Part shown: piece by piece, positions 1 through 20,510 of the stretch | How the letters are laid out: each line of letters opens with the position of its first letter | Position numbering within the stretch: position 1 is the first letter of the stretch | Source of the DNA: a virus | Lineage: Duplodnaviria; Caudoviricetes | Reading direction: 5' to 3' (one strand) | DNA length: 64,000 nucleotides | Virus record (IMG/VR): IMGVR_UViG_2974623408_000001 | Coordinates: 1 to 64,000 of that record | The notes under the pieces: generated by a model | Seen by the model: the letters and a program-made list of their open reading frames with translations, nothing else | Told to the model about the DNA's origin: nothing | The model's database searches: none | Position numbers and translations under genes: made by a program

Positions 1-37
1 AGCAGACCCTAAAAGATGGTCTCTGACCTCTGGAGCG

Positions 38-385
38 GTGATTCTAGCCATTTCTAGGGCTTCTACGGCAAAAGAGCCGCCACTCACCGCGTCACAGATA
101 GTAGAAGCGGTGTTAAAAACACCCGAACCTTATAAGACAGCAGAAGATCATGAGATTTGGGAAAAATCGCGCCTTCTACTGGATTCTCCGGCTGAGATAC
201 TTGATTTATTGAGTGTATTGTGCGGTGAGGGCGAAAACTACCCAGAAGCGCCTGTATATACAGACGGCACGGTGTTTATGCTCACAGAAGCGGGTAAAGC
301 AGCCGCCGAGCAGATGGATTCAGACTGGCGCCAGTACTGCGGCAAGAGACTGGCTGAGAAGCCCGCCGGGATACGGGCACTCTAG
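38..385 (+). CDS. hypothetical protein, possibly winged-helix
   Basis: 115 aa ORF in a low-GC segment; TASQIVEAV and FMLTEAGKAAAE resemble wHTH ends; weak. Confidence 0.45.
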   Translation: MILAISRASTAKEPPLTASQIVEAVLKTPEPYKTAEDHEIWEKSRLLLDSPAEILDLLSVLCGEGENYPEAPVYTDGTVFMLTEAGKAAAEQMDSDWRQYCGKRLAEKPAGIRAL

Positions 386-447
386 AAATGGTTATTAACA
401 ATGGTCATTTAGTCGATTTATGGTTAATACCATTGTATCATTGTGTT

Positions 448-1050
448 ATGGCTAAACCAAAACGCATTAAATCATTTACTTCTACCGACGAATTGAACGC
501 AGAAATCACCCGGTGGGCTGGTTATTACCGCATTTCTGAATCAGAACTAATACGTAATACCCTAGATTCCTTCGTTAAGCGGTGCGAAAAACAATGCGCT
601 GACAACGGCACATTACCGCCGCCAGCCGTACCGCCGTTGCCCGTGCCTCAAAAGGGGAAGGCGTGGATATACGGGTTATACCTCGATAACCAGTGCTTTT
701 ACGTTGGTCAGACCACTAAACTCTACACTCGAGAAGGTCAACATCGAACAAAATACGGTGCTGATTTCGATTTTGAAGTGCTAGAAGAGGTTAATAACCA
801 CGAAAAATTAGATGCTGAACAGGATTGGATTCGTCATCTTCAGGCGCAAGGACACAAGCTCGATAACAAATGGTACCGCGGACCGGGCCGAAAACGAGAA
901 GGTATTACCCGCGATCCGATGATGCCACCGTGGGAGGAGCCTTGCTATATCTGTAATGATGGCACATGGCATCCGCCTAAGAGCAAAAATGAACTCGACA
1001 AAGAAGCAGAAATTGCGTCGTTGTTTAAAGGCGAAATAGCCGGGCCGTAA
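448..1050 (+). CDS. GIY-YIG endonuclease with N-terminal ribbon-helix-helix-like segment
   Basis: WIYGL...FYVGQT...R...E-QDWI GIY-YIG signature; ATG 448 lies 6 nt after a TATCAT -10 box (leaderless start); lower GC than flanks. Confidence 0.75.
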   Translation: MAKPKRIKSFTSTDELNAEITRWAGYYRISESELIRNTLDSFVKRCEKQCADNGTLPPPAVPPLPVPQKGKAWIYGLYLDNQCFYVGQTTKLYTREGQHRTKYGADFDFEVLEEVNNHEKLDAEQDWIRHLQAQGHKLDNKWYRGPGRKREGITRDPMMPPWEEPCYICNDGTWHPPKSKNELDKEAEIASLFKGEIAGP

Positions 1051-1436
1051 GGAAAAATGAAATGACAGGAAAAGCAGAATCTGCGTCGTCGTCTGAGACA
1101 GCGTTACCCCGCAAAGGCACAGACGTCCAAATAGATGCGCCCTTGTGGGAGTGGGCTCCGCCCTTCAAAGGCACCAAGCGCTCGCACCAGTCCGCCCGGG
1201 AAAAGGCGAAGGCGACAACATGGCTAGACACCAGAGACCAGCGGTGGTGGATCAACGCCAAGCATCTCGAGGGTCTGCCGCCCAAGCGTGTACTGCGCAC
1301 CAAGTTCACCTACCGCCAGTTCCTTCACTTGCTCTGGACCAGCTCTGAACTGTATGTCCATGCCCGTGTTGCTTTTGAAACTGGGACGCCTATCACCGAA
1401 CTTGACGCGTCTCGAAAAGCAGAAATTTCGTCGTTG
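1004..1436 (+). repeat. three copies of a 20-bp motif AAGCAGAAwyTkCGTCGTyG
   Basis: aagcagaaattgcgtcgttg 1004-1023; aagcagaatctgcgtcgtcg 1072-1091; aagcagaaatttcgtcgttg 1417-1436. Confidence 0.75.
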
Positions 1437-2510
1437 CGCAAGCGCCTGCGTCCGGTGAGAAACTTCTCCAAGCTGGTGCTGAACGGCGGCCCTGAAGGGC
1501 AATGGCTGGGCAAAACCCTGCGCCCTGAGGATGTCCATGAGGAGGTCGTCAAGCTGCACGCGAGCGGGTCACCAGGCTTCGACGCCATGACCGTTGCGGC
1601 ATCGTCAACGGCATGGGAAATGTTCGCCGAGGACACCATCTCAGTCGAGGAATACGCCCTCCTGAAGCAGCGTAAAGACCTTCCCGGTGTCCAGACCAAG
1701 GAAGGCTACGACCTGCACCGGCTCGCGAAGCATGCCGCCCGTGCCGAGACTAGCCTGGTTAGGGCAGAACCGCACACCGTCCGTGAGTACATGCCTGACA
1801 CCGGGATGTACGCCGGCGTCGGGTCTGAACTGGCCAAGAAGATCACCAACCCGCTCGAGGCGAGTGGCGTCGTCGACCCTGCCACGGGTGAGATCAAACA
1901 CGTACGGTGCCAGTTCGTCTTCACCCGTGACGTCCTCGAGGCGATGGGCAGCTCGGTTGTGCACCGTGACGTCAAAGAAAACTCACAATGCGCGAACATG
2001 GCTGTGCCTGGGACGATCAGATGTGAGATGCACGGTGGCCTGTACGCGTCACCGGATGAGACCCGCCGTCTGGTTGTGTCCAGCCAGCTGAAGATGTTCA
2101 CCCTGGCCGACCAGGCTGTCGCTACGATCGCTGACATCATGATGCATGGCACAAACGAGGCCACCCGACTGCGTGCCGCTGAGACCATTCTGAACCGCTC
2201 CGGGATCACCGAGGGTAACGACTTCGAGATGCCTTCGCTCGAGGGCAAGAAACAGGGCGCCGGCGAGGATGCCACCGACAAGATCAAGCGACGCCTGCAG
2301 AAACTGGCGAGCGTCACCGATGAGGACCTGGAGCGTATCCGTGCCGAGCGTGACGAGCGTACCGCTCAGCAGCGTGCCGACCATGAACAGCACCGTGCCC
2401 CCGGTCACGAGGTGATCGAGGGCGAGGTGGTTGAAGGGTCAGCCGAAGTGGGCCCAGATGAACGGGAGGGCGGCGATGGTACCGCCGATCACACCGGCGA
2501 TGATGAGTAG
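1062..2510 (+). CDS. putative terminase small subunit-like protein (C...CxMHGG domain)
   Basis: QCANMAVPGTIRCEMHGG followed by helical AVATIADIM...RLRAAETILNRSG, a pattern typical of actinophage TerS-like proteins; aagga RBS. Confidence 0.45.
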   Translation: MTGKAESASSSETALPRKGTDVQIDAPLWEWAPPFKGTKRSHQSAREKAKATTWLDTRDQRWWINAKHLEGLPPKRVLRTKFTYRQFLHLLWTSSELYVHARVAFETGTPITELDASRKAEISSLRKRLRPVRNFSKLVLNGGPEGQWLGKTLRPEDVHEEVVKLHASGSPGFDAMTVAASSTAWEMFAEDTISVEEYALLKQRKDLPGVQTKEGYDLHRLAKHAARAETSLVRAEPHTVREYMPDTGMYAGVGSELAKKITNPLEASGVVDPATGEIKHVRCQFVFTRDVLEAMGSSVVHRDVKENSQCANMAVPGTIRCEMHGGLYASPDETRRLVVSSQLKMFTLADQAVATIADIMMHGTNEATRLRAAETILNRSGITEGNDFEMPSLEGKKQGAGEDATDKIKRRLQKLASVTDEDLERIRAERDERTAQQRADHEQHRAPGHEVIEGEVVEGSAEVGPDEREGGDGTADHTGDDE

Positions 2511-2517
2511 CGTCATG

Positions 2518-2610
2518 TCACCTCCCTCGTAGTGCGATCCAGTAGATGAGTGCCATGACTCCGCACCATCCGACGAACAAAAGCACGTCGACCCAGTTGA
2601 TGTCGTGCAT
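2518..2610 (-). CDS. 30 aa single-TM micropeptide
   Basis: hand translation MHDINWVDVLLFVGWCGVMALIYWIALRGR; TAATG overlap with upstream stop. Confidence 0.55.
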   Translation of the reverse strand: MHDINWVDVLLFVGWCGVMALIYWIALRGR

Positions 2611-2969
2611 TACGGCTCCACGATCGATCGGAGGGTGTACTCGATGTCACCGGCGCGAGCTGTCCAAATCCAGACGAATGACCCGTTGGTGACCCTGTTC
2701 GGTGTCTGTCGTTGCCACCGTACGGCGTCGTGGAGCGCTACGCGTCGTGCGTCGGCTTGCCGCCGGTACGAGTCGATCACACCGGGTGACCGATGGGGCA
2801 GGAGCGAGGAATCCACGGCGTTCTGCACTTCGTCGTTGATGTACGCGACGACCGAATCCTTGGCGGTCTGCCAGTCGTCGGTTGTGGCGATGTTCACGTG
2901 GCACATGGCGGCGTGTTCGTCGTTGCTCGGGTTGACGTGGTCACGGGTGCCGTAGTACTTGGTGGACAT
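2610..2969 (-). CDS. hypothetical protein
   Basis: start reassigned to MSTKYY at the TGATG overlap with the upstream gene. Confidence 0.65.
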   Translation of the reverse strand: MSTKYYGTRDHVNPSNDEHAAMCHVNIATTDDWQTAKDSVVAYINDEVQNAVDSSLLPHRSPGVIDSYRRQADARRVALHDAVRWQRQTPNRVTNGSFVWIWTARAGDIEYTLRSIVEP

Positions 2970-3187
2970 CACGCACCCCGGATTTCGTCGATCTTCGCCT
3001 GGGCGATGACGTTGTTGGCTTCGTCCCGGAGCACGTACAGCGACGTCGTGCCAGCCATGCCGTGCTCTTCGAAACCCAGAGCCTGCGCCGTGTTGAAGGC
3101 GTGGACGAACGACTCGCACGTGGTCGTGGTGGTGATGATGTCCTCATCCGTCGGGACGATGACGGTCAGGAGGTGTGGTGTTGCCAT
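2969..3187 (-). CDS. hypothetical protein (first gene of a promoter cassette)
   Basis: leader acaccacgaaaggaaaaacaATG and promoter 3224-3256 upstream. Confidence 0.75.
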   Translation of the reverse strand: MATPHLLTVIVPTDEDIITTTTTCESFVHAFNTAQALGFEEHGMAGTTSLYVLRDEANNVIAQAKIDEIRGA

Positions 3188-3223
3188 TGTTTTTCCTTTC
3201 GTGGTGTTTTTGTTGATACGATG

Positions 3224-3256
3224 ATCGTATCACGTCACAACGCGGAGCGCAACCCC
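3224..3256 (-). promoter_or_regulatory. cassette promoter copy
   Basis: GGGG-overlapping TTGCGC-N17(ending CGTGA)-TACGAT. Confidence 0.8.
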
Positions 3257-3552
3257 GTAATCTCTTCGTATTCCTGCAGTGTGATCACTCTGCACGCGAT
3301 AGCACCGTGCAGCATGGCGTTGTAGGCGCCGTGCAGCGTGTCGTTGACGCCGCTTGTGATCTTGATACGCTCGATCCGCCCGTCGACACGGGTCCTGTAG
3401 TCGATGCTCCACAGCCACGCGGCACACGGGATGTTGTCCTCGTCGAGCGTGATGTCGTCCAGCTCGATGGCTGCCGTGTACAGGTCCCCTTCGTCGATGC
3501 CGCCCTTCAGTACGGTCGTGAGGGTCTTGTCCCCGATCGTTTCCCAGTCCAT
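3235..3552 (-). CDS. hypothetical protein
   Basis: 105 aa, aaggag RBS; 3' end runs into the next promoter. Confidence 0.7.
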   Translation of the reverse strand: MDWETIGDKTLTTVLKGGIDEGDLYTAAIELDDITLDEDNIPCAAWLWSIDYRTRVDGRIERIKITSGVNDTLHGAYNAMLHGAIACRVITLQEYEEITGLRSAL

Positions 3553-3562
3553 GATGTTCTCC

Positions 3563-3634
3563 TTATGTTGTCGTTGCTGCCGTGAACGCCACGATGACGA
3601 TCACGATGAGGGCGAACCAGAGCCAGTCGTTCAC
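3563..3634 (-). CDS. 23 aa single-TM micropeptide
   Basis: VNDWLWFALIVIVIVAFTAATTT; GTGA overlap. Confidence 0.45.
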   Translation of the reverse strand: MNDWLWFALIVIVIVAFTAATTT

Positions 3635-3930
3635 ACGACCTCCTTGATCTCGTCGATCAGCTCGTCCCCGACCTGCTTGCTGTCGTCGCTGACGTCGCCG
3701 CCCATGTAGATTTCCCTGATGTAGTGAGCCAACACGTCGCGCGTCGTCGCGTACACCCGGTACACGGGTGTGCCTTCGCCGGAGAGGGCGTGCTTGTTCG
3801 GGATGGGCACGAATGACATCGTGCTGTCGTTCACGTCGTCCTCACCCGGGTCGTTCGCCGAAAACGGGAGGTCGATGTACACGGTCATGACGGGCTCGCC
3901 GTACCAGTTGGCGGAATATACTGCGTGCAT
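3631..3930 (-). CDS. hypothetical protein
   Basis: start at MHAVYS after leader acgaaaggcaccacaATG. Confidence 0.75.
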   Translation of the reverse strand: MHAVYSANWYGEPVMTVYIDLPFSANDPGEDDVNDSTMSFVPIPNKHALSGEGTPVYRVYATTRDVLAHYIREIYMGGDVSDDSKQVGDELIDEIKEVV

Positions 3931-3970
3931 TGTGGTGCCTTTCGTGGTGGTGTTCGTTGTTGATGCATTA

Positions 3971-4003
3971 ATCCTATCACGCACACGTGCACAGCGCAAC
4001 CCC
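3971..4003 (-). promoter_or_regulatory. cassette promoter copy
   Basis: TTGCGC-N17(CGTGA)-TAGGAT. Confidence 0.8.
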
Positions 4004-4035
4004 TCATTGCTACATTACCGGCCAGTAACATAGCG

Positions 4036-4077
4036 AAACCCCCGCCGGGGAGAACACCACGAAAACCCCGGCGGGGG
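4036..4077 (-). terminator. GC-rich hairpin, probable leftward intrinsic terminator
   Basis: 12-bp stem cccccgccgggg 4039-4050 / ccccggcggggg 4066-4077, followed by TTT on the minus strand. Confidence 0.7.
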
Positions 4078-4114
4078 CCGCCCTGCTCGACGCGCCAAAC
4101 GGCGCGGAGCGGGT

Positions 4115-4279
4115 CTAGAAGGGCATCACCTTCTTGGCTTGACGGTACATGCTGGTCTTGGCACGCGGTTTGCGTGGCTTGTGCTGGCTCAGTTCGTCCG
4201 TGAGCCCGTACGTGAACGATGTCCCGAGGGCGAACGCCTGGCCCGCTGAGCGAGCCATGCGATGTCGTCTGTTGCCCAT
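4115..4279 (-). CDS. 54 aa basic hypothetical protein
   Basis: hand translation MGNRRHRMARSAGQAFALG...KKVMPF; fills the gap between 4284 and the hairpins. Confidence 0.5.
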   Translation of the reverse strand: MGNRRHRMARSAGQAFALGTSFTYGLTDELSQHKPRKPRAKTSMYRQAKKVMPF

Positions 4280-4283
4280 CACG

Positions 4284-4484
4284 TCACCACGTGATCCGTG
4301 CGATCGCGGGCGATTCGCCGCCGTCGTTGTACACGTGGAACGAGCCCACGGGGTCCTGCGACTGGAGGCCCCAGCCCTGGTCGTGAACGAACCGGCTGAG
4401 GTTCTCCTCGGCGAACAGGTAGTTGGTGTGCGTCTCCTTGAAGAGCACGCGATTCTGGTGGTTGATCACCGTGGCTGTGAACAT
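4284..4484 (-). CDS. hypothetical protein
   Basis: gaaggag RBS, promoter upstream. Confidence 0.75.
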   Translation of the reverse strand: MFTATVINHQNRVLFKETHTNYLFAEENLSRFVHDQGWGLQSQDPVGSFHVYNDGGESPAIARITW

Positions 4485-4525
4485 GTTGTCTCCTTCGTTG
4501 GTGTTTGTGTGGTGTTCGTACGTTC

Positions 4526-4565
4526 ATCGTATCACGCGGGGCCACGATGCGCAACCCCGCGTGAT
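4526..4565 (-). promoter_or_regulatory. cassette promoter copy embedded in a stem-loop
   Basis: TTGCGC-N17-TACGAT; inverted repeat atcacgcgggg 4531-4541 / ccccgcgtgat 4555-4565. Confidence 0.8.
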
Positions 4566-4569
4566 GCAA

Positions 4570-4896
4570 TCACCGTACGAGGTCGACCAGCGTGCCGATC
4601 CAGTCGCTGTAGGCGATCTCCTCCATCTCAGCGGCGTCGAGCATCGCGCTCTCGTGATCGCAGTCAGCCTCGTCGAACATGTCTTCCGGTCGCACCGTCC
4701 CGATGAGGTCGTTTCGATGCGTCAGGGCGGCCAGCATGCCGCACCCGTTCGACCAGATGGTGATGAGCACGTCCTTGTAGCCGTGTGGCTCACCAATCGT
4801 CACCTCGGCGTAGTGCGAGGCGCCGCGGGCGCGGTAGATGACGGCGATGTTGTCCCAGTTGTCGACGATCGTGGTGGCGTTCAGTGGTGCGGTCAT
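4570..4896 (-). CDS. hypothetical protein
   Basis: leader acgaaaggacaccacaATG. Confidence 0.75.
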   Translation of the reverse strand: MTAPLNATTIVDNWDNIAVIYRARGASHYAEVTIGEPHGYKDVLITIWSNGCGMLAALTHRNDLIGTVRPEDMFDEADCDHESAMLDAAEMEEIAYSDWIGTLVDLVR

Positions 4897-4925
4897 TGTG
4901 GTGTCCTTTCGTTGTCGATGTATTC

Positions 4926-4958
4926 ATCCTATCACGTTCGCACGTGATGCGCAACCCC
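4926..4958 (-). promoter_or_regulatory. cassette promoter copy
   Basis: TTGCGC-N17(CGTGA)-TAGGAT. Confidence 0.8.
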
Positions 4959-5131
4959 TACGCTGGCTCCCGCACGATGGTCAGCTCGCCGCGATACACC
5001 TGGTCCTGCAGGGCGCTGACGTCTGTGACGGCCTTGGTGCCGTTGCTGTACGTGACCCGCACGGCGCGCCCTGAGCGCTCTGCTACGAGGATATTGCCGT
5101 TGCGTTCACGGTACCGGCTGGTGGTGATCAT
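4958..5131 (-). CDS. 57 aa hypothetical protein
   Basis: hand translation MITTSRYRERNGNILVAERSGRAVRVTY...; ggagg RBS. Confidence 0.6.
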   Translation of the reverse strand: MITTSRYRERNGNILVAERSGRAVRVTYSNGTKAVTDVSALQDQVYRGELTIVREPA

Positions 5132-5132
5132 G

Positions 5133-5222
5133 TCAGAATACCTCCGCGATCTCGTCCGCGATGACGGCGAACATGAGGAACAGTGTGGTGATGGTGATGA
5201 TGAGTGTGGCTGTGGTGTTCAT
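5133..5222 (-). CDS. 29 aa leaderless TM micropeptide
   Basis: MNTTATLIITITTLFLMFAVIADEIAEVF; ATG 6 nt after TATGAT. Confidence 0.55.
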   Translation of the reverse strand: MNTTATLIITITTLFLMFAVIADEIAEVF

Positions 5223-5228
5223 GCATTA

Positions 5229-5287
5229 ATCATAACACGCCCCACAACGAAACGCAACCCCCGATCTGGTGTGATCAGGGGTTGCGT
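5229..5287 (-). promoter_or_regulatory. cassette promoter copy with overlapping stem-loop
   Basis: TTGCGT-N17-TATGAT; hairpin acgcaacccc...ggggttgcgt 5252-5287. Confidence 0.8.
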
Positions 5288-5307
5288 GGGCGGCCAGGCC
5301 CGAGAGC

Positions 5308-5550
5308 TCAGTAATCCTCCTCATCATCGTCGCCGAAGGCGAACGTTTCGTACGCGCTGATCTTGCCCCAGCTGGCGCCGTAGCGATTGTCCTTGTCGTG
5401 GGTGACGACGATCGCGTCCTCGCCGAAATCGCCGATCGCGTTCTCGACGGCCGCCAGCAGGTCGCCCAGCGTCATGCGGGATTCGGCCTGGTCGGCGGCG
5501 TAGCCGCGGTTGGCGCTGACGTTCATGACGGCGTAGGTCTGGTCGGACAT
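5308..5550 (-). CDS. hypothetical acidic protein
   Basis: leader acgaaaggcaccacaATG. Confidence 0.75.
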   Translation of the reverse strand: MSDQTYAVMNVSANRGYAADQAESRMTLGDLLAAVENAIGDFGEDAIVVTHDKDNRYGASWGKISAYETFAFGDDDEEDY

Positions 5551-5597
5551 TGTGGTGCCTTTCGTTCGTGGTGTGGTGTGTTTTTGTTTGTACGTTG

Positions 5598-5639
5598 ATC
5601 ATATCACGGGGGCGCGTCAAGCGCAACCCCCGTGATATG
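5598..5639 (-). promoter_or_regulatory. cassette promoter copy embedded in a 13-bp stem-loop
   Basis: TTGCGC-N17-TATGAT; catatcacggggg 5600-5612 / cccccgtgatatg 5627-5639. Confidence 0.8.
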
Positions 5640-5645
5640 CGATTG

Positions 5646-6059
5646 TCAGCCCAGCTGGAACGTGGGCGTGGCTGCCTTGACGAGGCTCACCTTCGGGGCC
5701 GGGGCGAAGGCGATGCGCTGACGCGCGTTGGCGAGGCCCAGCAGCACCGCGTTGCGCACGCGATCCTCGGTCGCGCCGTAGCAGAGCGCCTTGGCTGCAG
5801 CCCGCTGAATGCGCGTGATCTGCGCGTCGAAGGCGTCGCTCATCGCGTACGTGCCCTGCTTGAAGGCGATCAGCTCGCGATGACGCTCGACATGAACGGC
5901 GACCCGGGCGACGTTCTTGCTGGCTCGATTGCTGTTCGGGCCGACGGGCAGCCCCGCGTCGATGCGATCATTGATCCGGGCGGCCGCCTCATCGATGGCG
6001 TCGGCCACGACGGCCTGGGCGATGATGGCGTTCACGTTGTTGGTGGTGATGGCGTTCAT
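5646..6059 (-). CDS. hypothetical Ala-rich helical protein
   Basis: start MNAITT; 27 bp of leader plus start codon (6057-6083) identical to 5548-5574. Confidence 0.75.
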   Translation of the reverse strand: MNAITTNNVNAIIAQAVVADAIDEAAARINDRIDAGLPVGPNSNRASKNVARVAVHVERHRELIAFKQGTYAMSDAFDAQITRIQRAAAKALCYGATEDRVRNAVLLGLANARQRIAFAPAPKVSLVKAATPTFQLG

Positions 6060-6106
6060 TGTGGTGCCTTTCGTTCGTGGTGTCGATCGTTTTTCGATCT
6101 GGTATA

Positions 6107-6219
6107 ACCATATCAAGCCCCAGCGCAACGCGCAACCCCTATTTGGGAATTACAACGAACGTTGTCACGTAAAATTTTTTGCGCAGCCTATTGCGCAACG
6201 CGCCCACGCTTGATAGGAT
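6107..6219. promoter_or_regulatory. divergent pair of cassette promoters
   Basis: minus: TTGCGC-N17-TATGGT (6107-6139); plus: TTGCGC 6191-N17-TAGGAT 6214-6219. Confidence 0.8.
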
Positions 6220-6225
6220 TGTGTC

Positions 6226-6441
6226 ATGACAACGAACACCAGCCCCCGCCACACGCGCTACGACATCGACCCGCGCACCGGACGTTACCACTGCGATGAA
6301 TGTCATTGCTTCCTCGCCGAGGGCGACGCGTACCACGACATCGGTCACGACGAGGACGGCCCGTACGCCGACCTCATCATTGACTGCCGCAATTGCGGCC
6401 ACCACCAGATGGTGCGCCCCCTGACCCGAGAGGACCGCTGA
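6226..6441 (+). CDS. leaderless zinc-ribbon protein (CxxC...CxxC)
   Basis: CDEC...CRNCGH; ATG 6 nt after the -10 box. Confidence 0.7.
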   Translation: MTTNTSPRHTRYDIDPRTGRYHCDECHCFLAEGDAYHDIGHDEDGPYADLIIDCRNCGHHQMVRPLTREDR

Positions 6442-6699
6442 CATGCGCGCCCTTCGCCGGCTCTGGACGAGCCCGGAGCAGCGCCGCCTTGAGCATCTGG
6501 CCGCCTCATTCGAGTCCAGAATCCAGCACCCCGCCTACATCGCACAACGAGAAAGGGAGGCAGAAAAGATCGCCCAGTGGCTGAACCAGCGCCCCTAGCG
6601 GCGCGTACTAATAGAAGGCACGTGCGCCCTACCCCAGGGCTGATGCCCGGGGCAAGGGCGGGCGCTCTCAGCAGCGACGACAGACACCAAAAGAAAGGG

Positions 6700-6728
6700 T
6701 TGCGAAACGCACGAAAACACGATATGAT
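6700..6728 (+). promoter_or_regulatory. cassette promoter copy
   Basis: TTGCGA-N17-TATGAT, ATG follows at 6735. Confidence 0.75.
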
Positions 6729-6734
6729 AGACGT

Positions 6735-6881
6735 ATGAACACAAACACCAACCCCCAGCCCACCGCCTACGATCTGGCCCACCTCACGGACACCGTGTCC
6801 GAGGACGGCACCACCTGTGAGTGCGGGCAGGACGTATCAGACTGTGCGGCCACGCCCAACACGTGGAGGGAGACCATCTGA
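6735..6881 (+). CDS. 48 aa leaderless hypothetical protein
   Basis: hand translation MNTNTNPQPTAYDLAHLTDTVSEDGTTCECGQDVSDCAATPNTWRETI. Confidence 0.6.
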   Translation: MNTNTNPQPTAYDLAHLTDTVSEDGTTCECGQDVSDCAATPNTWRETI

Positions 6882-6884
6882 GAG

Positions 6885-7186
6885 CCCGCCCTGGGGCGCC
6901 CTACTATAAGGGTGCCCTAGGGGCAAGGGCCCTGCCACCTACAGGGCAGCATGCCCTGCCCACTACCACGGCAGCGATGCCTGGTTGGTACACAGGGCAC
7001 TAATTTGTGTCGTGTGCAGAAGCACTATTTGCGTCGTATGCCTGCAGGGGTAGCACCACCAGGGTGGTGGGTGGCAGGACCTGGGAGTACCAGGGTGGCA
7101 GTGCCCCCTGGGCAGCAGGGCGGAGGGCAGGCAGGCAGGCAGGCGAGTGCCCCACCCTGCAGGCGCAGGGCAGGGCAGCTGGTGCC
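6885..7186. repeat. non-coding G-skewed region of CAGGG/GCAG repeats
   Basis: many cagggca/ggca units, several GGG tracts and few CG dinucleotides; lies between convergent transcription units. Confidence 0.6.
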
Positions 7187-7444
7187 TCAGTGGAGCTTCG
7201 TGATCACGATGCGGGTGCGACCGTCAATCGTCGTCGTCGTGAACGTGCGTGCCTCTGCGTCGTACACAGGCGCCGCGTCGATGACATCGAACTCGCCGCT
7301 GTCGTACACCTCGTGCAGGGCAGCAGCGACGTCGGCCACGTAATAGTGGTAGCGATTGTTCGGGTTGACGACGCTGGTGACGGCGATGCTGGCGCCGAAC
7401 TGGCTGAAATCGGCGGCGAGCTGGGGGCGGGCGTGTGCGGTCAT
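7187..7444 (-). CDS. hypothetical protein
   Basis: aaggag RBS; promoter 7484-7516. Confidence 0.75.
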   Translation of the reverse strand: MTAHARPQLAADFSQFGASIAVTSVVNPNNRYHYYVADVAAALHEVYDSGEFDVIDAAPVYDAEARTFTTTTIDGRTRIVITKLH

Positions 7445-7483
7445 TTCGGGCTCCTTGGTGGTGTTCGTTTTCGTTGTACGTTT

Positions 7484-7516
7484 ATCGTATCACGCCAGCG
7501 CGCAACGCGCAACCCC
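7484..7516 (-). promoter_or_regulatory. cassette promoter copy
   Basis: TTGCGC-N17(CGTGA)-TACGAT. Confidence 0.8.
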
Positions 7517-7660
7517 TTTGCCATAAAAAATTCGACATTTGCTAAAGTGAAATCGCTCGCGGCGGCGCCTACGGGCGGCACTTCGCCACTTACCGAGTCA
7601 GACCCTATACAAGCCTTTCGGTGTGCACCTGAAAGTGTCATCTCTCCCCTCCCCTCCTTG

Positions 7661-7912
7661 TCACATCTCTGTCGTTGCTTCACCCCACCCGTTGATGTCT
7701 TTCCCCTCCAGGTGTTTGCACACAACCTTGTCTGCGTTCCATTTCTGAAACAGTCGGACGGATTTCCACCCGCAGACGCAACGTGCTTGGTAGGATGGTC
7801 GTCCGTCTCGTGGGTCCTCCTCGTACGGATGGTAGCTGTCGCGACCGATACCTCTGTGCATGGTCACACGGTGCATCATCTGGTTTCTGTGTAGTAGTGT
7901 CTCTATCACCAT
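7661..7912 (-). CDS. H-CxC-H array paralogue 21
   Basis: MVIETLLHRNQMMH...QARCVCGW-x17-H. Confidence 0.85.
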   Translation of the reverse strand: MVIETLLHRNQMMHRVTMHRGIGRDSYHPYEEDPRDGRPSYQARCVCGWKSVRLFQKWNADKVVCKHLEGKDINGWGEATTEM

Positions 7913-7924
7913 TCCACCGTCATT

Positions 7925-8185
7925 TCATCGTCCCAACACCCTCATCATCTTGCCTTCGAAACTATTGTCCCCACCCTCGGTGTGATTCTTCATGTATAGT
8001 CGGGCAACTCGTTCAACGTAGACGCGTCGTGACCACCAGCCGCACACGCATCTACCCTGGAAGGTTTCTTGACCATCTTCAGGGTCTTCCTGGTACACGT
8101 CATGGCGGCTTCTGCCTAAACCCTGGTGTACGTGACCCTGGTGCATGCTTTTATGACAGTCACGTGTGGTTTGAATCGCCATCAC
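7925..8185 (-). CDS. H-CxC-H array paralogue 20
   Basis: MAIQTTRDCHKSMH...QGRCVCGW...KNH. Confidence 0.85.
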   Translation of the reverse strand: MMAIQTTRDCHKSMHQGHVHQGLGRSRHDVYQEDPEDGQETFQGRCVCGWWSRRVYVERVARLYMKNHTEGGDNSFEGKMMRVLGR

Positions 8186-8235
8186 TCACGCCTCTCACTC
8201 ACGTCTCTCGCTCATCCACTCACCCACTTGCGCCC

Positions 8236-8490
8236 TCATATCCCGACATCCGGCTTACCAGCCAGCTGGCACTTGATGTGCTCTTTCGCGTAACGGTCCG
8301 CAAGCGGGAACAGGTAGAAACGTTTCGACATCCATCCGCACGTGCACCTGGATTGCAAGGTTGTGGTGCGGTCTGTGCGAGCGTCACTGTCTGTCGGTTC
8401 CTTGTACGGGTCACGCGGGTCACGCCCTATCCCTTTGTGCTTTGATATGACGTGCATCGTCGTCACGCATTCTGGTGTTGTCCGAATCAC
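8236..8490 (-). CDS. H-CxC-H array paralogue 19
   Basis: MIRTTPECVTTMH...QSRCTCGW...KEH. Confidence 0.85.
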   Translation of the reverse strand: MIRTTPECVTTMHVISKHKGIGRDPRDPYKEPTDSDARTDRTTTLQSRCTCGWMSKRFYLFPLADRYAKEHIKCQLAGKPDVGI

Positions 8491-8666
8491 GACATCACCA
8501 CCAGCGAGTCATCCGTACGCCAGCAACGGCACCGTTTCACCAGACACCCGTCCGCACCGTGTAAACACCATGCGTGCCCGCAGTCATCACACTGGGGCCA
8601 CCCGGGAGGGCTGCACACGATCCCGTCTGTCTTCTTGTCTGTTCTGTCTACACGCGTCTTGCTCAT
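8487..8666 (-). CDS. 59 aa Cys-rich protein of a different family inside the array
   Basis: hand translation MSKTRVDRTDKKTDGIVCSPPGWPQCDDCGHAWCLHGADGCLVKRCRCWRTDDSLVVMS; GTGA overlap at 8487-8490. Confidence 0.7.
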   Translation of the reverse strand: MSKTRVDRTDKKTDGIVCSPPGWPQCDDCGHAWCLHGADGCLVKRCRCWRTDDSLVVMS

Positions 8667-8707
8667 GTCTTACTCATTCACTGTCACTGTCACTGTCACT
8701 TTCATCC

Positions 8708-8938
8708 TCAGTATCCTGACGACGAGTACGAAAGTCTGTTAGGCATCGGACGCCCGATGTTGTGCTGCATCCATACGTGCCGATTCACCCATTTGAACGC
8801 CGTTCTAGAGCCGTTGAACGTGCACGTCGCACCGCATGTGCACTTTCCCTCGTAGTTGTACAGGTTAATACCGATAGGTATCTTGACGGTCGTGGCGCGG
8901 TGGTATTCGCTGATCTTCTCTGTGGTGGTAATTATCAC
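8708..8938 (-). CDS. H-CxC-H array paralogue 18
   Basis: VIITTTEKISEYH...CTCG...NRH; GTGA overlap. Confidence 0.85.
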   Translation of the reverse strand: MIITTTEKISEYHRATTVKIPIGINLYNYEGKCTCGATCTFNGSRTAFKWVNRHVWMQHNIGRPMPNRLSYSSSGY

Positions 8939-9150
8939 AATAGTCCTATCGGCATGGCACGGTGACTGTTCAGGGTTAGCCAGCGATGTCGTTGTATCCA
9001 TTTGTCCAGGGACTCACTTCTCAAATACCGTCTTGAGGTACCGCAACTGCATGAACCTCTATGCTCGTACACCTTGTAGTGATAATCCCACACCGTTTCC
9101 ACGGTGATCTTGTGCATGGCGTCGACTTTCCGCTCTGTGGTTTCAATCAT
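8935..9150 (-). CDS. H-CxC-H array paralogue 17
   Basis: MIETTERKVDAMH...CSCG...QRH. Confidence 0.85.
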   Translation of the reverse strand: MIETTERKVDAMHKITVETVWDYHYKVYEHRGSCSCGTSRRYLRSESLDKWIQRHRWLTLNSHRAMPIGLL

Positions 9151-9367
9151 GCGCGGTACCGTACCTACTGCCACAGCCGTACGTGGCGCCGTACTTGGTG
9201 TGATTATCCGCCCAGGCGACAGAATCACCCCAGCTGTGGAACTCTTCTACCCTGCCGCACGTGCACGACGCTTCGTAGTATTTTTCCCCGCTGTACAAGG
9301 TGTCACGACCTGTCTTCCACGACACTTGGTGTAGTAACTTGACCTGGCGTTCTGTTGTGACGATCAC
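9143..9367 (-). CDS. H-CxC-H array paralogue 16
   Basis: VIVTTERQVKLLH...CTCG...WADNH. Confidence 0.85.
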   Translation of the reverse strand: MIVTTERQVKLLHQVSWKTGRDTLYSGEKYYEASCTCGRVEEFHSWGDSVAWADNHTKYGATYGCGSRYGTAHD

Positions 9368-9392
9368 TTGTCATGCACCTCTCACGAAACTG

Positions 9393-9596
9393 TCACGCAC
9401 CTCTCAGCGACGGCGGCCTTGGACCCCACTTGTGAATGTCTGCCCATTCTGAGGCGGCTGTAGTCTGTAGAAACCGATCTGTTGCCCCGCACGAGCACAC
9501 AGCACGGTACACCCAGGTGTAGCCGTTGCCTGCGACGTACGCGTCGAACGTCACGGTGTGCATCATGCGCACTTGGTCTATTGTTGTGGTGATCAT
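9393..9596 (-). CDS. H-CxC-H array paralogue 15
   Basis: MITTTIDQVRMMH...CSCG...WADIHKWG; ATGA overlap. Confidence 0.85.
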   Translation of the reverse strand: MITTTIDQVRMMHTVTFDAYVAGNGYTWVYRAVCSCGATDRFLQTTAASEWADIHKWGPRPPSLRGA

Positions 9597-9811
9597 CTGT
9601 GCGCACTCATCCTCAACATTCTTGTCCTTGCCAGCCAACCCCACTTGTGTTCGGCTGCCCAGGCGAGTACGTCTCTCTTACTCAAGTACGCGCCGTACGC
9701 GCCGCACGTACATGTGGCTCGGTTAACCCAGTTGCCTGAGGGGTTGACGAAGGTGTCAAAAGACACAGTGTGCAGGGCGTTGACTGCATTATTTGTATGG
9801 ACGAACATCAT
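9593..9811 (-). CDS. H-CxC-H array paralogue 14
   Basis: MMFVHTNNAVNALH...CTCG...WAAEHKWG; ATGA overlap. Confidence 0.85.
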   Translation of the reverse strand: MMFVHTNNAVNALHTVSFDTFVNPSGNWVNRATCTCGAYGAYLSKRDVLAWAAEHKWGWLARTRMLRMSAHR

Positions 9812-10023
9812 CTACCCGCATCTATCCACCGGAACGGTTGCTGAAGGTGAAAGTCGATCATCCGATTAACATCCGCTGTGCTGTACGCGTAATAGGTTGC
9901 GCCGCACGCGCACCATATCTGATACTCTTCGCCCATATTCTCGTAACCCGGTCCGTTACGGTCTGTGAGTGCACAATCCATGACATGCATGGCTGCCACG
10001 GTGCGTTGTGTGGTGTGAATCAT
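9808..10023 (-). CDS. H-CxC-H array paralogue 13
   Basis: MIHTTQRTVAAMH...CACG...DFH; ATGA overlap. Confidence 0.85.
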   Translation of the reverse strand: MIHTTQRTVAAMHVMDCALTDRNGPGYENMGEEYQIWCACGATYYAYSTADVNRMIDFHLQQPFRWIDAGR

Positions 10024-10226
10024 ACTCGTTGTTCCCACTCTGTGATTATGTGCCGGTGGGCGCGCTGTTTGGCTGAACTTGCTGTGGTGGAAGAAATAGA
10101 CTCCCAACCACATCGGCATTTCGCGGTGTATCGCCGTATCTGCACACCGGTTGCGGTTTCCACAGGATACTCGAACACACGACCCGAATGCAACACTTTG
10201 ACGGTGTCAAACAGTGTGGCGATCAC
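10020..10226 (-). CDS. H-CxC-H array paralogue 12
   Basis: VIATLFDTVKVLH...CRCGW...HRH; GTGA overlap. Confidence 0.85.
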   Translation of the reverse strand: MIATLFDTVKVLHSGRVFEYPVETATGVQIRRYTAKCRCGWESISSTTASSAKQRAHRHIITEWEQRV

Positions 10227-10429
10227 TTTGAACTCTCATCCATCCAGGTTCTCCACAAAGTTTCATGATTCTGCATGGCAAGTTCTGCGCCTCTTCTTGA
10301 GTGGTAACCAGACGTGTACCATCCACATCTACAGGCACCGCTGTACGGCAGACCGTCACCACCGCCTAGGGTTATCTTCAGAGACGTTTTATGGAGCATA
10401 GGGAAGAGCACGACGTATCTTTCAATCAC
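10223..10429 (-). CDS. H-CxC-H array paralogue 11
   Basis: VIERYVVLFPMLH...CRCGW...QNH; GTGA overlap. Confidence 0.85.
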   Translation of the reverse strand: MIERYVVLFPMLHKTSLKITLGGGDGLPYSGACRCGWYTSGYHSRRGAELAMQNHETLWRTWMDESSK

Positions 10430-10626
10430 CAGTCGGCCCTTCCGTGATCACCTGTCTGCACATAGTATTCGTGCATCCATTTCCGGTCTCTCGCGGATTT
10501 GATGTCTGCCAGCCAGCCGGACACACGACCGCATGTGCATCTGTACCTATGTACTGGCGAACTGTCACTGCTTTCGATGCGTGTCTGGTGTACGCTTCTG
10601 GCGTGGTTTTCTAGTTCAATGATCAT
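10426..10626 (-). CDS. H-CxC-H array paralogue 10
   Basis: MIIELENHARSVH...CTCG...WMH. Confidence 0.85.
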   Translation of the reverse strand: MIIELENHARSVHQTRIESSDSSPVHRYRCTCGRVSGWLADIKSARDRKWMHEYYVQTGDHGRADW

Positions 10627-10633
10627 TAGAAGA

Positions 10634-10897
10634 TCACTTCATCTCCCCTACCCATTCGCCCTCTGGTGTACACACAGTGTGAAAATCGCCGCCAACGCGT
10701 GACCCGAGATGTGCGAGAAGCCGGAACTTGGCACTCGGAAGTCGATCCTCCTGGTACCACGGACGTTCGACCTCGGACCGGGATTCGGGATGAATGCACG
10801 GGCACACGAATTCCCAGCCAGGTACGCCTGACCTGTACGCTCGTACCAATCGCGCTGGATGCATGGAGCGTGCACACTGTGCTAGTTCGACGATCAT
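10634..10897 (-). CDS. H-CxC-H array paralogue 9
   Basis: MIVELAQCARSMH...CPC...LAH; ATGA overlap. Confidence 0.8.
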   Translation of the reverse strand: MIVELAQCARSMHPARLVRAYRSGVPGWEFVCPCIHPESRSEVERPWYQEDRLPSAKFRLLAHLGSRVGGDFHTVCTPEGEWVGEMK

Positions 10898-11181
10898 AGA
10901 GGCACTCCCCGTTGAGTGCACGCGGTCACGAAGTATTCGCCTCGTTTTGCGTCGCCGTTGTAGCAATAGGTGAGATCAACTGCAACCAAATGATGAAACA
11001 CAGCTGTTAGATGCACGGCGATACGTTGCTTTGCGTGGGCGAGTGACTGGTGCGCGTATCCTGCATCGTGTACGCCGCACGGGCATTCGATATTCCATTG
11101 ATCGAATCCATGTCTGTCCTGTCCGCAGATAATCTTAGTTTGGTGTATCGCGGCAGCGTGACGCATCAACAGTGTCACCAT
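10894..11181 (-). CDS. H-CxC-H array paralogue 8
   Basis: MVTLLMRHAAAIH...CPCG...AVH; aggag RBS. Confidence 0.8.
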   Translation of the reverse strand: MVTLLMRHAAAIHQTKIICGQDRHGFDQWNIECPCGVHDAGYAHQSLAHAKQRIAVHLTAVFHHLVAVDLTYCYNGDAKRGEYFVTACTQRGVPL

Positions 11182-11357
11182 TGCATTTCTCCTGTTTTCG
11201 CCCAGTGCATATGACGAGATTCTTCCCGTATCACCTCTCTGTGACTTGTGCTGACGTACATGAACTCGCACGAACACTGCACACGGTAGTACGGATGGTC
11301 GAATACGAAATTTGTTCTGTGCATGTCCAGAATGCACACGGGCAACTCGATGAACAC
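11175..11357 (-). CDS. H-CxC-H array paralogue 7
   Basis: VFIELPVCILDMH...CSC...RHMH; TAGTG overlap. Confidence 0.8.
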   Translation of the reverse strand: MFIELPVCILDMHRTNFVFDHPYYRVQCSCEFMYVSTSHREVIREESRHMHWAKTGEMQW

Positions 11358-11626
11358 TAGAGGTCCCTGCCCAACACCTGACGCGCTATTCCGACACTGT
11401 ACAGCGATATCTCTGCCTCACCGTTGCACGCTTTGAAAACCTCACGGATGTGATGGTAACCCCAAGAGTTTTCTGCTTTCTCCTTTGTGACGCTGTCATA
11501 ACCCGCGGAGCCGTTCCAACCACAGGTGCATCGTGCTTGATACGACCTGACTGTCCACGGGTCTGGTACAGATATGATGTTCGGCTGATGAAAGGCGGAC
11601 ACCATCAACGGCAGGACTTGGATCAT
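11357..11626 (-). CDS. H-CxC-H array paralogue 6
   Basis: MIQVLPLMVSAFH...CTCGW...YHH; ATGA overlap. Confidence 0.85.
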   Translation of the reverse strand: MIQVLPLMVSAFHQPNIISVPDPWTVRSYQARCTCGWNGSAGYDSVTKEKAENSWGYHHIREVFKACNGEAEISLYSVGIARQVLGRDL

Positions 11627-11892
11627 CGGACTGGCTTTCGTGTACGCGCGATTCGTTCTTTCGACCGTGTCATCGGACGATTCGGTTCACCGGCCAGAAC
11701 ATAGTTGAGGTGCAGAAAGTGAAACGTCACAGCCTGTCTCTTCGTCACGAAACCGCGTTTACCTTCCCACCCGCACGAACACCATGCGCCCCATTTCATG
11801 TCTGGACGTCCGTATATCCGCTCGTTCGGTTTCAGCTTGCGGGTCAGATCCTGATGTGTCTTCGCGATGAAGTTTTTCGGAGTGTCGATCAT
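11623..11892 (-). CDS. H-CxC-H array paralogue 5
   Basis: MIDTPKNFIAKTH...CSCGW...HFLH; ATGA overlap. Confidence 0.85.
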   Translation of the reverse strand: MIDTPKNFIAKTHQDLTRKLKPNERIYGRPDMKWGAWCSCGWEGKRGFVTKRQAVTFHFLHLNYVLAGEPNRPMTRSKERIARTRKPVR

Positions 11893-12116
11893 GGTTGGTT
11901 TTTCCACCCTTGAAAACAGTATTCGATGTGCAGGTCGCCTAGGTAACGTGCATAGTCTTTCTTTGTCTGCGGTGAGTACGTCCAGCCGCATGAGCAGCGG
12001 GCTTCGTACAGAATCATGGTTCTATGAACACCACGTGAACTGCTGACAGTGGTCACGTGTGTGGCACGTATTCGGTCACACACTCGCATGCTCAAATCTG
12101 TTGTTGTAATGATCAT
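11889..12116 (-). CDS. H-CxC-H array paralogue 4
   Basis: MIITTT...ATH...CSCGW...DLH; ATGA overlap. Confidence 0.85.
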   Translation of the reverse strand: MIITTTDLSMRVCDRIRATHVTTVSSSRGVHRTMILYEARCSCGWTYSPQTKKDYARYLGDLHIEYCFQGWKNQP

Positions 12117-12334
12117 CGTGGCATCCAGGGTTCACCGCGGGTACACCACTCGATGTGCATATTGCAGTACATCTCGCAGCTGACCCTGGCTGTGAACGTT
12201 GCGTATAGATTCCAGCCGCACGAACACACGGGGCGCCATTCCTCGATTTCGGATTCCCACTCAGTTGATGTGCGATGTTCTTCGTTGACCTTCGCGTGCA
12301 CCGAGTGTTTGATCTCGTACGTTGTCTGTATCAT
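12113..12334 (-). CDS. H-CxC-H array paralogue 3
   Basis: MIQTTYEIKHSVH...CSCGW...NMH. Confidence 0.85.
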   Translation of the reverse strand: MIQTTYEIKHSVHAKVNEEHRTSTEWESEIEEWRPVCSCGWNLYATFTARVSCEMYCNMHIEWCTRGEPWMPR

Positions 12335-12385
12335 GTCATGTCGATTCTGTCCAGTCTGTCAGTCTGTCTACCAGTACGTTTGTCG

Positions 12386-12574
12386 TCAGTATGCGTCGCT
12401 GAGTACACCGTTGTGGTGGTTGCGCACCGCTCTGTCCACGTACGTCGTGAACACGGATCGATTCCAGCCACAGCCGCAAACTAATTGCGATATAGCTCGT
12501 CCTCTTTCGCTAATGCCGTGCGTGATCCACACCTTATGCGTGTTTTCGACGTGTTGGACGGTTGTGACGATCAT
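12386..12574 (-). CDS. H-CxC-H array paralogue 2 (leaderless)
   Basis: MIVTTVQHVENTH...CGCGW...RNHH. Confidence 0.85.
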   Translation of the reverse strand: MIVTTVQHVENTHKVWITHGISERGRAISQLVCGCGWNRSVFTTYVDRAVRNHHNGVLSDAY

Positions 12575-12580
12575 GCAGTT

Positions 12581-12609
12581 ACCATATCATACTGTCCTTG
12601 TCACTACAA
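12581..12609 (-). promoter_or_regulatory. internal array promoter
   Basis: TTGTAG-N17(ending TGA)-TATGGT-6 nt-ATG 12574. Confidence 0.65.
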
Positions 12610-12855
12610 CAGTTGACGAACAAACGAGTTCTGCAGGCCGCCATGAAACTCGTTGTTGTGGTCTGCAGCTTCTACCTTTGCCCTGAAATATCGCCAGCTT
12701 GGCGTAGCAAACCAGAAACATGCGCCGCATATCGCGCGGTACTGCACCCTGGATTTCGTGGCTAATGACCGGGAGCGATTGAACGAGTACGTGTGCACAA
12801 CTGCGTGCGCCGGTGACTCCATCGTGGTGGACAGCAGGTCAGTGAGAAAAATCAT
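12604..12855 (-). CDS. H-CxxC-H array paralogue 1
   Basis: MIFLTD...PAH...YRAICGACFW...ADH; ATGA overlap. Confidence 0.8.
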   Translation of the reverse strand: MIFLTDLLSTTMESPAHAVVHTYSFNRSRSLATKSRVQYRAICGACFWFATPSWRYFRAKVEAADHNNEFHGGLQNSFVRQLL

Positions 12856-13277
12856 AGTCTTGTGTATGACGGGCCGTACCGAATGAACCGTTCTTTCCAT
12901 ATTTCTGCTTCACTCGCGGACCACGTAAACGGTGGTGTCACGCGTGCGACGTCGATAGGGTCATGGAACAGCTGGTACGTATACGGCGAGCCGCCGGCTA
13001 GTGACCCCATCAGCTTTTCAAGTGAAACAGATGAGAACAGAGTACTTCGCATACTTTCTGCTTCGGACAGTTCGTCATTCTCGTAGAAACAGTGAATTCT
13101 CGTAGCGCTCATGAACGCCGGGTTGTCGGGTGACATAAGTGTGACGTGATAGATTTTCCACCGATCCACACTGCTGGACGTGAGGTTTCGTTTGAGACGG
13201 GTGTCATTCCTGGCGACCACGCCATTGATCCAATCTGTGTACAGAGTTGGAGCGCAACGATCGTACTGCAGGATCAT
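12852..13277 (-). CDS. hypothetical protein, second gene of the array operon
   Basis: 141 aa; MI..YD and RWKI shared with the 13274-13711 product. Confidence 0.7.
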   Translation of the reverse strand: MILQYDRCAPTLYTDWINGVVARNDTRLKRNLTSSSVDRWKIYHVTLMSPDNPAFMSATRIHCFYENDELSEAESMRSTLFSSVSLEKLMGSLAGGSPYTYQLFHDPIDVARVTPPFTWSASEAEIWKERFIRYGPSYTRL

Positions 13278-13711
13278 GACACCACCGAGGCGAGATACTT
13301 GACGTGTTCGTACTTGCTGACGACACGATCAAAAGCGCCGTCAAAACGAGGAACCAGTTCGCCGTGACCCTCGCACGAACATTCGACTAGCTGCGTGATG
13401 GTGGCACCGCCGGTTGAGTCGAAAAGATGCATGAACGACGCCAACGAGATAGCGCTGACTCGAGTGTCCTGAGTTTGGTCTTTGGCGGATTCGCAGTAGC
13501 AGATGAGAGTGGAATTCTCAACATCTACTTGTGTTCTTTCTGGCCCGACGTTTAGCCATTTGATCTTGAAAGTGATGATCTTCCAGCGTGACTCTTCGAA
13601 GTTACGAAAACCAGGCTGTGGACTCATCACGAGATGGGCGTTACCGCGAAGCACGGTCATGAGAACATGACGTGCTGCTACGTCGTAGCGTTGATCGTAG
13701 GTGTCTATCAT
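13274..13711 (-). CDS. hypothetical protein heading the array (C-terminal CSC...H)
   Basis: near-leaderless start MIDTYDQ 7 nt after the -10 box; ends VECSCEG...YEH. Confidence 0.7.
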   Translation of the reverse strand: MIDTYDQRYDVAARHVLMTVLRGNAHLVMSPQPGFRNFEESRWKIITFKIKWLNVGPERTQVDVENSTLICYCESAKDQTQDTRVSAISLASFMHLFDSTGGATITQLVECSCEGHGELVPRFDGAFDRVVSKYEHVKYLASVVS

Positions 13712-13718
13712 GATCGTT

Positions 13719-13780
13719 ACGGTATCACGGTACACGACATCTGTAAACCTATTGCGTACACGTCATGTCCCTGATACGAT
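13719..13780. promoter_or_regulatory. divergent promoter pair driving the array (left) and accessory operon (right)
   Basis: minus: TTTACA-N17(CGTGA)-TACCGT; plus: TTGCGT 13752-N17-TACGAT 13775-13780. Confidence 0.75.
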
Positions 13781-20066: not shown

Positions 20067-20214
20067 GGTGTTCGACACTAAGATGTGCTGCGCAAAGTGC
20101 CCTAACGTTGCCGCAAAACGAACGAACTTCAATGACGGTAGCGAAGAATGGTATTACTGCGCTCGTCACGCTGAAACTATGTCCATGCATCTTATAGACC
20201 TGGCGGTGAATTGA
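20059..20214 (+). CDS. small CxxC...CxxH protein
   Basis: CAKC...YYCARH. Confidence 0.55.
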   Translation: MIEVFDTKMCCAKCPNVAAKRTNFNDGSEEWYYCARHAETMSMHLIDLAVN

Positions 20215-20510
20215 TGATTGAGGGACTTCCTGATCTCGACGAATGGGCAGCAGTTGATCGAGGCGACAAGATCGAACACATCGCACCTGACATGATGATC
20301 GTCACACCCGCGCCTCGACCTACTTCGATCGATCACAGTTTCATCATCGAGAAGACGCCTCCGTTGAGCGAAGACCACGGCAAAACCTTCTACCACCTGT
20401 GGCAAGCAAGTTGCACCACATGCGGTTGGTGGAGCGAGGCGTGCGATAAAGAACGTGCCAAATCGTGGGGTCACTGGCACCACACGTCGGAGAACCTGCG
20501 ACCAAGCTAA
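20214..20510 (+). CDS. orphan H-CxxC-H array homologue
   Basis: internal MIVTPAPRPTSIDH...WQASCTTCGWWS...AKSWGHWH. Confidence 0.75.
   Translation: MIEGLPDLDEWAAVDRGDKIEHIAPDMMIVTPAPRPTSIDHSFIIEKTPPLSEDHGKTFYHLWQASCTTCGWWSEACDKERAKSWGHWHHTSENLRPS

Follow-up and report, generated by a model that had tools for sequence, protein, structure and literature searches.

How does a phage come to hold 21 diverged copies of one small gene in a single row, and are such copies the product of recent amplification, of import from other phages or of old local duplication? We have analyzed this question for a gene array in the window, by which we mean the whole stretch of 64,000 nucleotides considered here (positions 1 to 64,000 of IMG/VR record IMGVR_UViG_2974623408_000001). 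The window makes up the left half of a Gordonia phage genome of 122,563 bp that belongs to the genus Godonkavirus; structure matches in BFVD are to proteins named from GodonK, which suggests that the phage is GodonK or a very close relative. The array consists of 21 back-to-back minus-strand genes at 7661-12855, designated c1 to c21 from left to right, each coding for 60-95 amino acids according to the open reading frame (ORF) listing and the alignment. The only invariant columns of the 21-copy alignment are a His, a Cys-x-Cys and a second His (H...CxC...H). A hidden Markov model (HMM) scan of the genome in all six frames found exactly these 21 copies and one orphan at 20211-20510. An initial annotation had delimited the array as 7661-11357; the array runs on to 12855, and the orphan has to be added.

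Taken as a whole, the explanation that we consider probable is that of an old tandem multigene family evolving by birth and death, in which local duplication was followed by selection and whose products are zinc-stapled modules, likely early binders. Unequal recombination between neighbouring units would have made the copies, and the descendants would therefore lie side by side, as in c1-c3, c4-c9, c12-c14 and c16-c19. The copies would then have diverged until the scaffold alone was recognizable, and purifying selection would have kept them since.

Relatedness, age and selection among the copies

The claim of the initial annotation that nearest neighbours in the array are nearest relatives was borne out. 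Adjacent pairs have a mean Smith-Waterman score of 64.7, compared with 41.4 +/- 3.8 in shuffled orders, and the best match is an adjacent gene for 12 of the 21 copies, where 2.0 would be expected (permutation, p ~1e-5 for each). Tree and gene order also agree, nearest neighbours on the maximum-likelihood tree being close in position (summed positional distance of 73 versus 154 expected, p = 2.5e-4). The signal comes mostly from two blocks and is weak elsewhere; for c9-c21 alone, with the first eight copies removed, adjacency retains a p value of 0.005. Block A comprises c1 (7661-7912), c2 (7925-8185) and c3 (8236-8490), which are 37-40% identical in pairwise comparison and have a Cys-to-His spacing of 19. 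Block B comprises c4 (8708-8938), c5 (8935-9150), c6 (9143-9367), c7 (9393-9596), c8 (9593-9811) and c9 (9808-10023), the last assigned by its spacing and CGA motif. The spacing is 18 in all six consecutive copies, and pairwise identity within c4-c8 is 26-43%. Spacing classes cluster along the array (p = 0.015), as does loss of the Trp after CxCG (p = 0.011), for example in c4. The motifs first used to define these groups are present as quoted: H.G(I/L)GR...RC.CGW.S.R in c1-c3, HTV.FD...C.CGA...WA..HKWG in c7 and c8, MI.TTER.V at the starts of c5 and c6, TTEK in c4, and (I/V)EL at the starts of c12, c13 and c15.

Two further groups are weaker in the pairwise score matrix, one formed by c12 (10426-10626), c13 (10634-10897) and c14 (10894-11181) and the other by c16 (11357-11626), c17 (11623-11892), c18 (11889-12116) and c19 (12113-12334). 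The supported clades of the tree are {c1-c3}, {c4-c9}, {c4,c5,c7,c8}, {c6,c7,c8} and {c13,c14}, the last two copies being sisters with support of 96-99, and the window copies within any well-supported clade lie in a row or almost in a row. GC content and GC content at third codon positions (GC3) are uniform over the copies. Since neighbouring copies are the closest relatives, the array appears to have grown by local duplication, and local tandem duplication, as proposed by the initial annotation, is the simplest and best reading of the block structure.

Likeness between neighbours could in principle reflect gene conversion between adjacent copies instead of recent common descent. Short stretches of 18-26 nt, designated families D1 and D4, are common to gene starts and would suit such a process; they could also act as recombination substrates. 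No conversion tracts were seen, however, the closest pair of paralogues (c7/c8) is only 43% identical in amino acids, and synonymous divergence (dS) has reached saturation between the closest paralogues (1.07 to infinity). The characters that define the blocks are indels and spacings, which are not products of conversion at such identity, and we regard concerted evolution as very improbable.

The same figures bear on the age of the family that local duplication would have built. No direct DNA repeat longer than 29 nt occurs in the array, so that the near-identical DNA copies of a genomic accordion are not found at any pair. When the 17 ungapped pairs of orthologues in Gordonia phage Phendrix (Godonkavirus) were pooled, dS was 0.059 and nonsynonymous divergence (dN) 0.015, a dN/dS ratio of 0.25. 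Saturated dS among paralogues, the absence of long repeats and this low ratio together indicate that the copies are ancient, functional and currently conserved by purifying selection. The terms "accordion-style" and "rapid divergence" in the initial annotation are therefore not supported: the first implies recent growth, which does not fit the identity of the closest pair, the saturated dS, the short repeats and the conserved gene order on an unrelated contig described below, and the second is not borne out by the pooled dN/dS.

Turnover and relatives outside the array

Phendrix shares 95% identity with the window phage over the array and 99% in structural genes. This sister phage has 20 array copies and the orphan; it lacks c8 and c9 and carries one extra copy. 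Identity along the array is mosaic, reaching 100% from ~10900 to 12600. Over c2, nucleotide identity falls to 62-75% exactly across the gene, with flanks of 95% on both sides, and comparison with the Phendrix counterpart gives a dS of ~1.05 and a dN/dS of 0.31. As the divergent patch stops at the gene borders, c2 is an imported allele, one that is old and was acquired with cassette-like precision by recombination. The extra Phendrix copy (6225-6473 of its locus, L001) lies between c13 and c12, where the window has a 237-nt gap. At 10626-10637 on the minus strand the window retains GTG ATC TTC TAA, two codons from the start and two from the end of the lost gene, and by their sequence these 12 nt are clearly recognizable as the deletion scar of a copy lost by the window phage. 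Two more diverged patches, c10 (10020-10226) and c13, adjoin indels. Present turnover is thus whole-cassette loss and single-cassette replacement by recombination with related phages, and no fresh amplification was seen in the comparison with Phendrix.

The c10 gene of Phendrix has a 6-residue C-terminal extension where c9 and c8 are missing (window 10020-10050, L001 5604-5640). This extension may be what is left of the c8 tail after unequal crossover; a c10/c8 crossover product is suggestive only, as the tails align unconvincingly.

Among 1.8 billion representative proteins, a profile search gave 138 matches, many with 2-4 copies of the domain per protein. A word-indexed search of 5.8 billion proteins matched only the phage itself and Phendrix, and a tblastn search of 50,697 phage records with c16 and c7 matched Phendrix alone. 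As a locus-search query, c10 by itself found no related locus in viral or metagenome contigs; an alignment of c10-type sequences found four loci with one member each. An unrelated metagenome contig of 932 nt (L002) has four separate tandem genes of the family. The first of these (L002_a) has c12 as its sister (36% identity) and the second c10 (52%), in the order of transcription in the window. Because c12-like and c10-like genes adjoin in the same order there, at least part of the array must predate the genus. Other fetched loci hold single genes or 2-4 intragenic repeats in mobile-element settings. Another metagenome contig (L006, 4301-6240) encodes a 902-amino acid protein with the family domain, adjoined by three DUF6221 genes that form a small paralogue run of their own.

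The numbers of copies are those of a lineage-specific expansion, with 21 and the orphan here, 20 and the orphan in Phendrix, none in Boopy (Forzavirus, the next-nearest genus), and from one to four domains at other loci. The pattern within the array is likewise that of birth-and-death evolution, since relatedness drops along the array, weakly beyond the two main blocks, and purifying selection is accompanied by occasional loss.

Could the array instead have come mainly from cassettes or blocks of other phages, the blocks having been duplicated elsewhere and brought in together? Such capture would account for the imported c2 allele with limits at the gene borders, for the more diverged patches of c10 and c13 beside indels, for the fact that c10 and c12 have nearer relatives on L002 than within the array, and for the presence of a non-family gene at the border of blocks A and B. 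The exchanged pieces, however, each replace, at an unchanged position, a copy of their own type, which means allelic exchange and adds no family members. Uniform GC and GC3 also argue against import, the gene order on L002 fits shared ancestry of an already existing array, and monophyly of the array with respect to 37 outside family members is not rejected by the approximately unbiased (AU) test (p = 0.20). Imported blocks would, moreover, still need tandem duplication somewhere. We therefore think capture an unlikely source of the array. The statement of the initial annotation that the array did not grow by capture is nevertheless not supported as it stands, c2 being an imported allele.

Predicted fold, function and gene arrangement

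AlphaFold models of c10 (predicted local distance difference test, pLDDT, 92.5) and c1 (pLDDT 87.1) have the same topology of helix, beta-hairpin, short strand and helix, and an alpha-beta-beta-alpha fold is predicted with confidence for the family proteins. Of the conserved His residues, the first is placed between helix 1 and strand 1 in the models and the last inside helix 2; the CxC ends strand 2. The H, C, C and H are invariant across 60 family sequences from the array and outside, and these four residues most likely hold one zinc ion, which would clamp the two helices and the beta-hairpin of the small module together. The extra residues of block A, as modelled for c1, form a long loop in the beta1-beta2 hairpin; this loop and the C-terminal tail would be the variable parts of the module.

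None of the 21 copies matches Pfam, and PHROGs yielded only weak matches of five copies to phrog_5419 (E >= 0.0016). Membership in DUF7848 (PF25232) or SpdB (PF05122), small proteins of actinobacterial mobile elements, was considered and rejected, since these models match no array copy when run on the genome; a few outside members match DUF7848 (E = 0.0014) and SpdB (E = 0.0066) weakly, and SpdB occurs in one neighbour cluster of the ESM Atlas (score 0.88). The domain partners of outside multi-domain members are limited to AAA_24 and a sub-threshold match to DciA, too thin a basis for function. The same fold is found in unannotated proteins of other actinophages. The family domain is thus an undescribed one, without a Pfam match, that occurs in other actinophages and in actinobacterial mobile elements, so that establishing its function here would allow many hypothetical proteins to be annotated.

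The array lies next to a perfect direct terminal repeat of 7,581 bp, found at 1-7581 of the window and at 114983-122563 of the genome. It begins 80 bp past the inner edge of this repeat, in the unique region, and is transcribed leftward, towards the repeat. The array proteins are likely to be early-made binders of differing host or phage macromolecules, putatively serving host takeover or counter-defence. A bolder version, which we hold to be unlikely, would make the array a standing library of zinc-stapled binders, each tuned to another defence or takeover target, expressed early, as its place beside the terminal repeat would imply, and exchanged one cassette at a time among Gordonia phages that circulate together.

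The genes are closely packed. Successive copies are joined by 4-nt ATGA or GTGA overlaps at 11 of the 20 junctions and overlap by 1, 7 or 8 nt at four others, so the genes are mostly translationally coupled; they usually begin with M-I. The copies not yet located are c11 (10223-10429), c15 (11175-11357), c20 (12386-12574) and c21 (12604-12855). The stop/start overlaps could be taken as traces of an ancestor that was one long multi-repeat protein, later split by stop and start codons into coupled genes, and outside the genus the domain does often occur 2-4 times per protein (P0008, P0017, P0025, P0026). Against such fission, each copy has its own start codon and its own conserved N-terminal M-I-x-T-T helix, neighbouring copies are in differing frames, and the only other array found, on L002, also consists of separate genes. 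Fission seems quite improbable to us; it bears on how the first few units arose and is compatible with later local duplication.

Individual copies depart from the common pattern. A degenerate copy is c13, with CPCIHP and a spacing of 28, and c21, the first in transcription order, has a CxxC variant. The same replacement of CxC by CxxC is seen in the orphan (20211-20510, plus strand), which is directly upstream of the large terminase gene and is related to the family by HMM (E = 4e-7) and hhalign (probability of 95.6%). Two larger genes upstream of the array, at 12852-13277 and 13274-13735, were considered as family members but have no detectable similarity. Between blocks A and B lies a Cys-rich ORF of 59 amino acids (8487-8666, minus strand), the stop codon of which overlaps the start of c3. 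It has the pattern C-x7-C-x2-C-x4-C-x-H-x4-C-x5-C-x-C, has no similarity to the family profile and was rejected as a member; its frame is kept in Phendrix, where it is unannotated and differs by synonymous changes and a 3-nt indel that leaves the frame intact. Just upstream of this ORF, at ~8675-8700, is a run of the hexanucleotide GTGACA, of four units in the window and three in Phendrix. The Phendrix record also leaves unannotated the orthologues of c11 (L001 5822-6028) and c20 (L001 8231-8431), and its gene 37 is annotated in another frame across part of the latter.

Several results weigh against the explanation by old local duplication and early-made binders. The global Mantel correlation between position and distance is weak (rho -0.13, p = 0.05). 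The initial annotation had named closer homologues in unrelated genomes as evidence that would count against it; for c1-c8 the neighbours are the nearest relatives and no copy has a closer outside homologue, but for c9-c21 outside homologues, with 25-40 bits, score as high as the best paralogue, with 15-30 bits. All of these scores are near noise, below 40 bits, and the outside matches are the best picks of a very large search. In the wide tree, built on 70 usable columns, deep branches are not resolved and the array is not one clade when the tree is left free. Matches of the predicted fold to double-stranded RNA-binding domains (dsRBDs) are weak: those of HYL1, DRB4 and HEN1 have Z scores of 4.8-5.3, in the range of common arrangements, the best Z score in the VIA wide structure search is 5.4, and a Foldseek search of the PDB yielded nothing at E <= 0.001, with E values of >= 0.2. 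Finally, a scan for promoters and terminators gave no more sites than shuffled sequence. Old duplication followed by selection remains, in our judgement, a probable account of the array.

Comparison with known systems

Growth of a tandem array by local duplication will not surprise specialists. In quantitative terms, the array illustrates how a large family of paralogues can be assembled and retained in a phage whose capsid size is fixed, with growth by ancient local duplication, selection on each copy, and turnover by cassette-precise loss and exchange of alleles. The results further set right the "accordion" label, a term that suggests recent dosage amplification. We found no mention of the array of GodonK or Phendrix in the literature.

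The multigene families (MGFs) 110, 360 and 505 of African swine fever virus are diverged tandem paralogues beside terminal repeats; they undergo birth-and-death evolution, and isolates differ by gains and losses. In contrast to these, the array belongs to a bacterial virus, its proteins are far smaller and their fold is unrelated. If the array were indeed a library of binders, it would be to phages what the terminal multigene families are to large eukaryotic DNA viruses. Likeness to the small mobile-element proteins of DUF7848 and SpdB is weak in the few outside members and below cut-offs in the array copies.

Genomic accordions are known from the segmental amplification of dmd-tifA in T4 (Srikant et al. 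2022, PMC9391042) and, as cited in that paper, from K3L of poxviruses (Elde et al. 2012). The array resembles them in that tandem copy number changes, here presumably through recombination at short homologies, that contraction leaves scars and that close relatives differ in copy number, here 21 versus 20. Accordion copies, however, are identical, transient and act through dosage, whereas the array copies are at most 43% identical and each is selectively kept; the array also shows contraction only, with no recent expansion.

The closest published phage case is the lineage-specific expansion of ~35 zinc-ribbon proteins in Bacillus phage G (Iyer et al. 2021, PMC7824862), which its authors propose to be transcription factors or DNA-binding proteins. 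In both phages many copies of one small protein, here putatively metal-binding, are found in a single genome. The proteins of phage G are four-Cys ribbons, while those of the array have H-CxC-H on an alpha-beta-beta-alpha module. Phage G is, moreover, a jumbo phage, whereas the window phage, at 122 kb, holds its copies in a single, strictly tandem and coupled array beside the terminal repeat.

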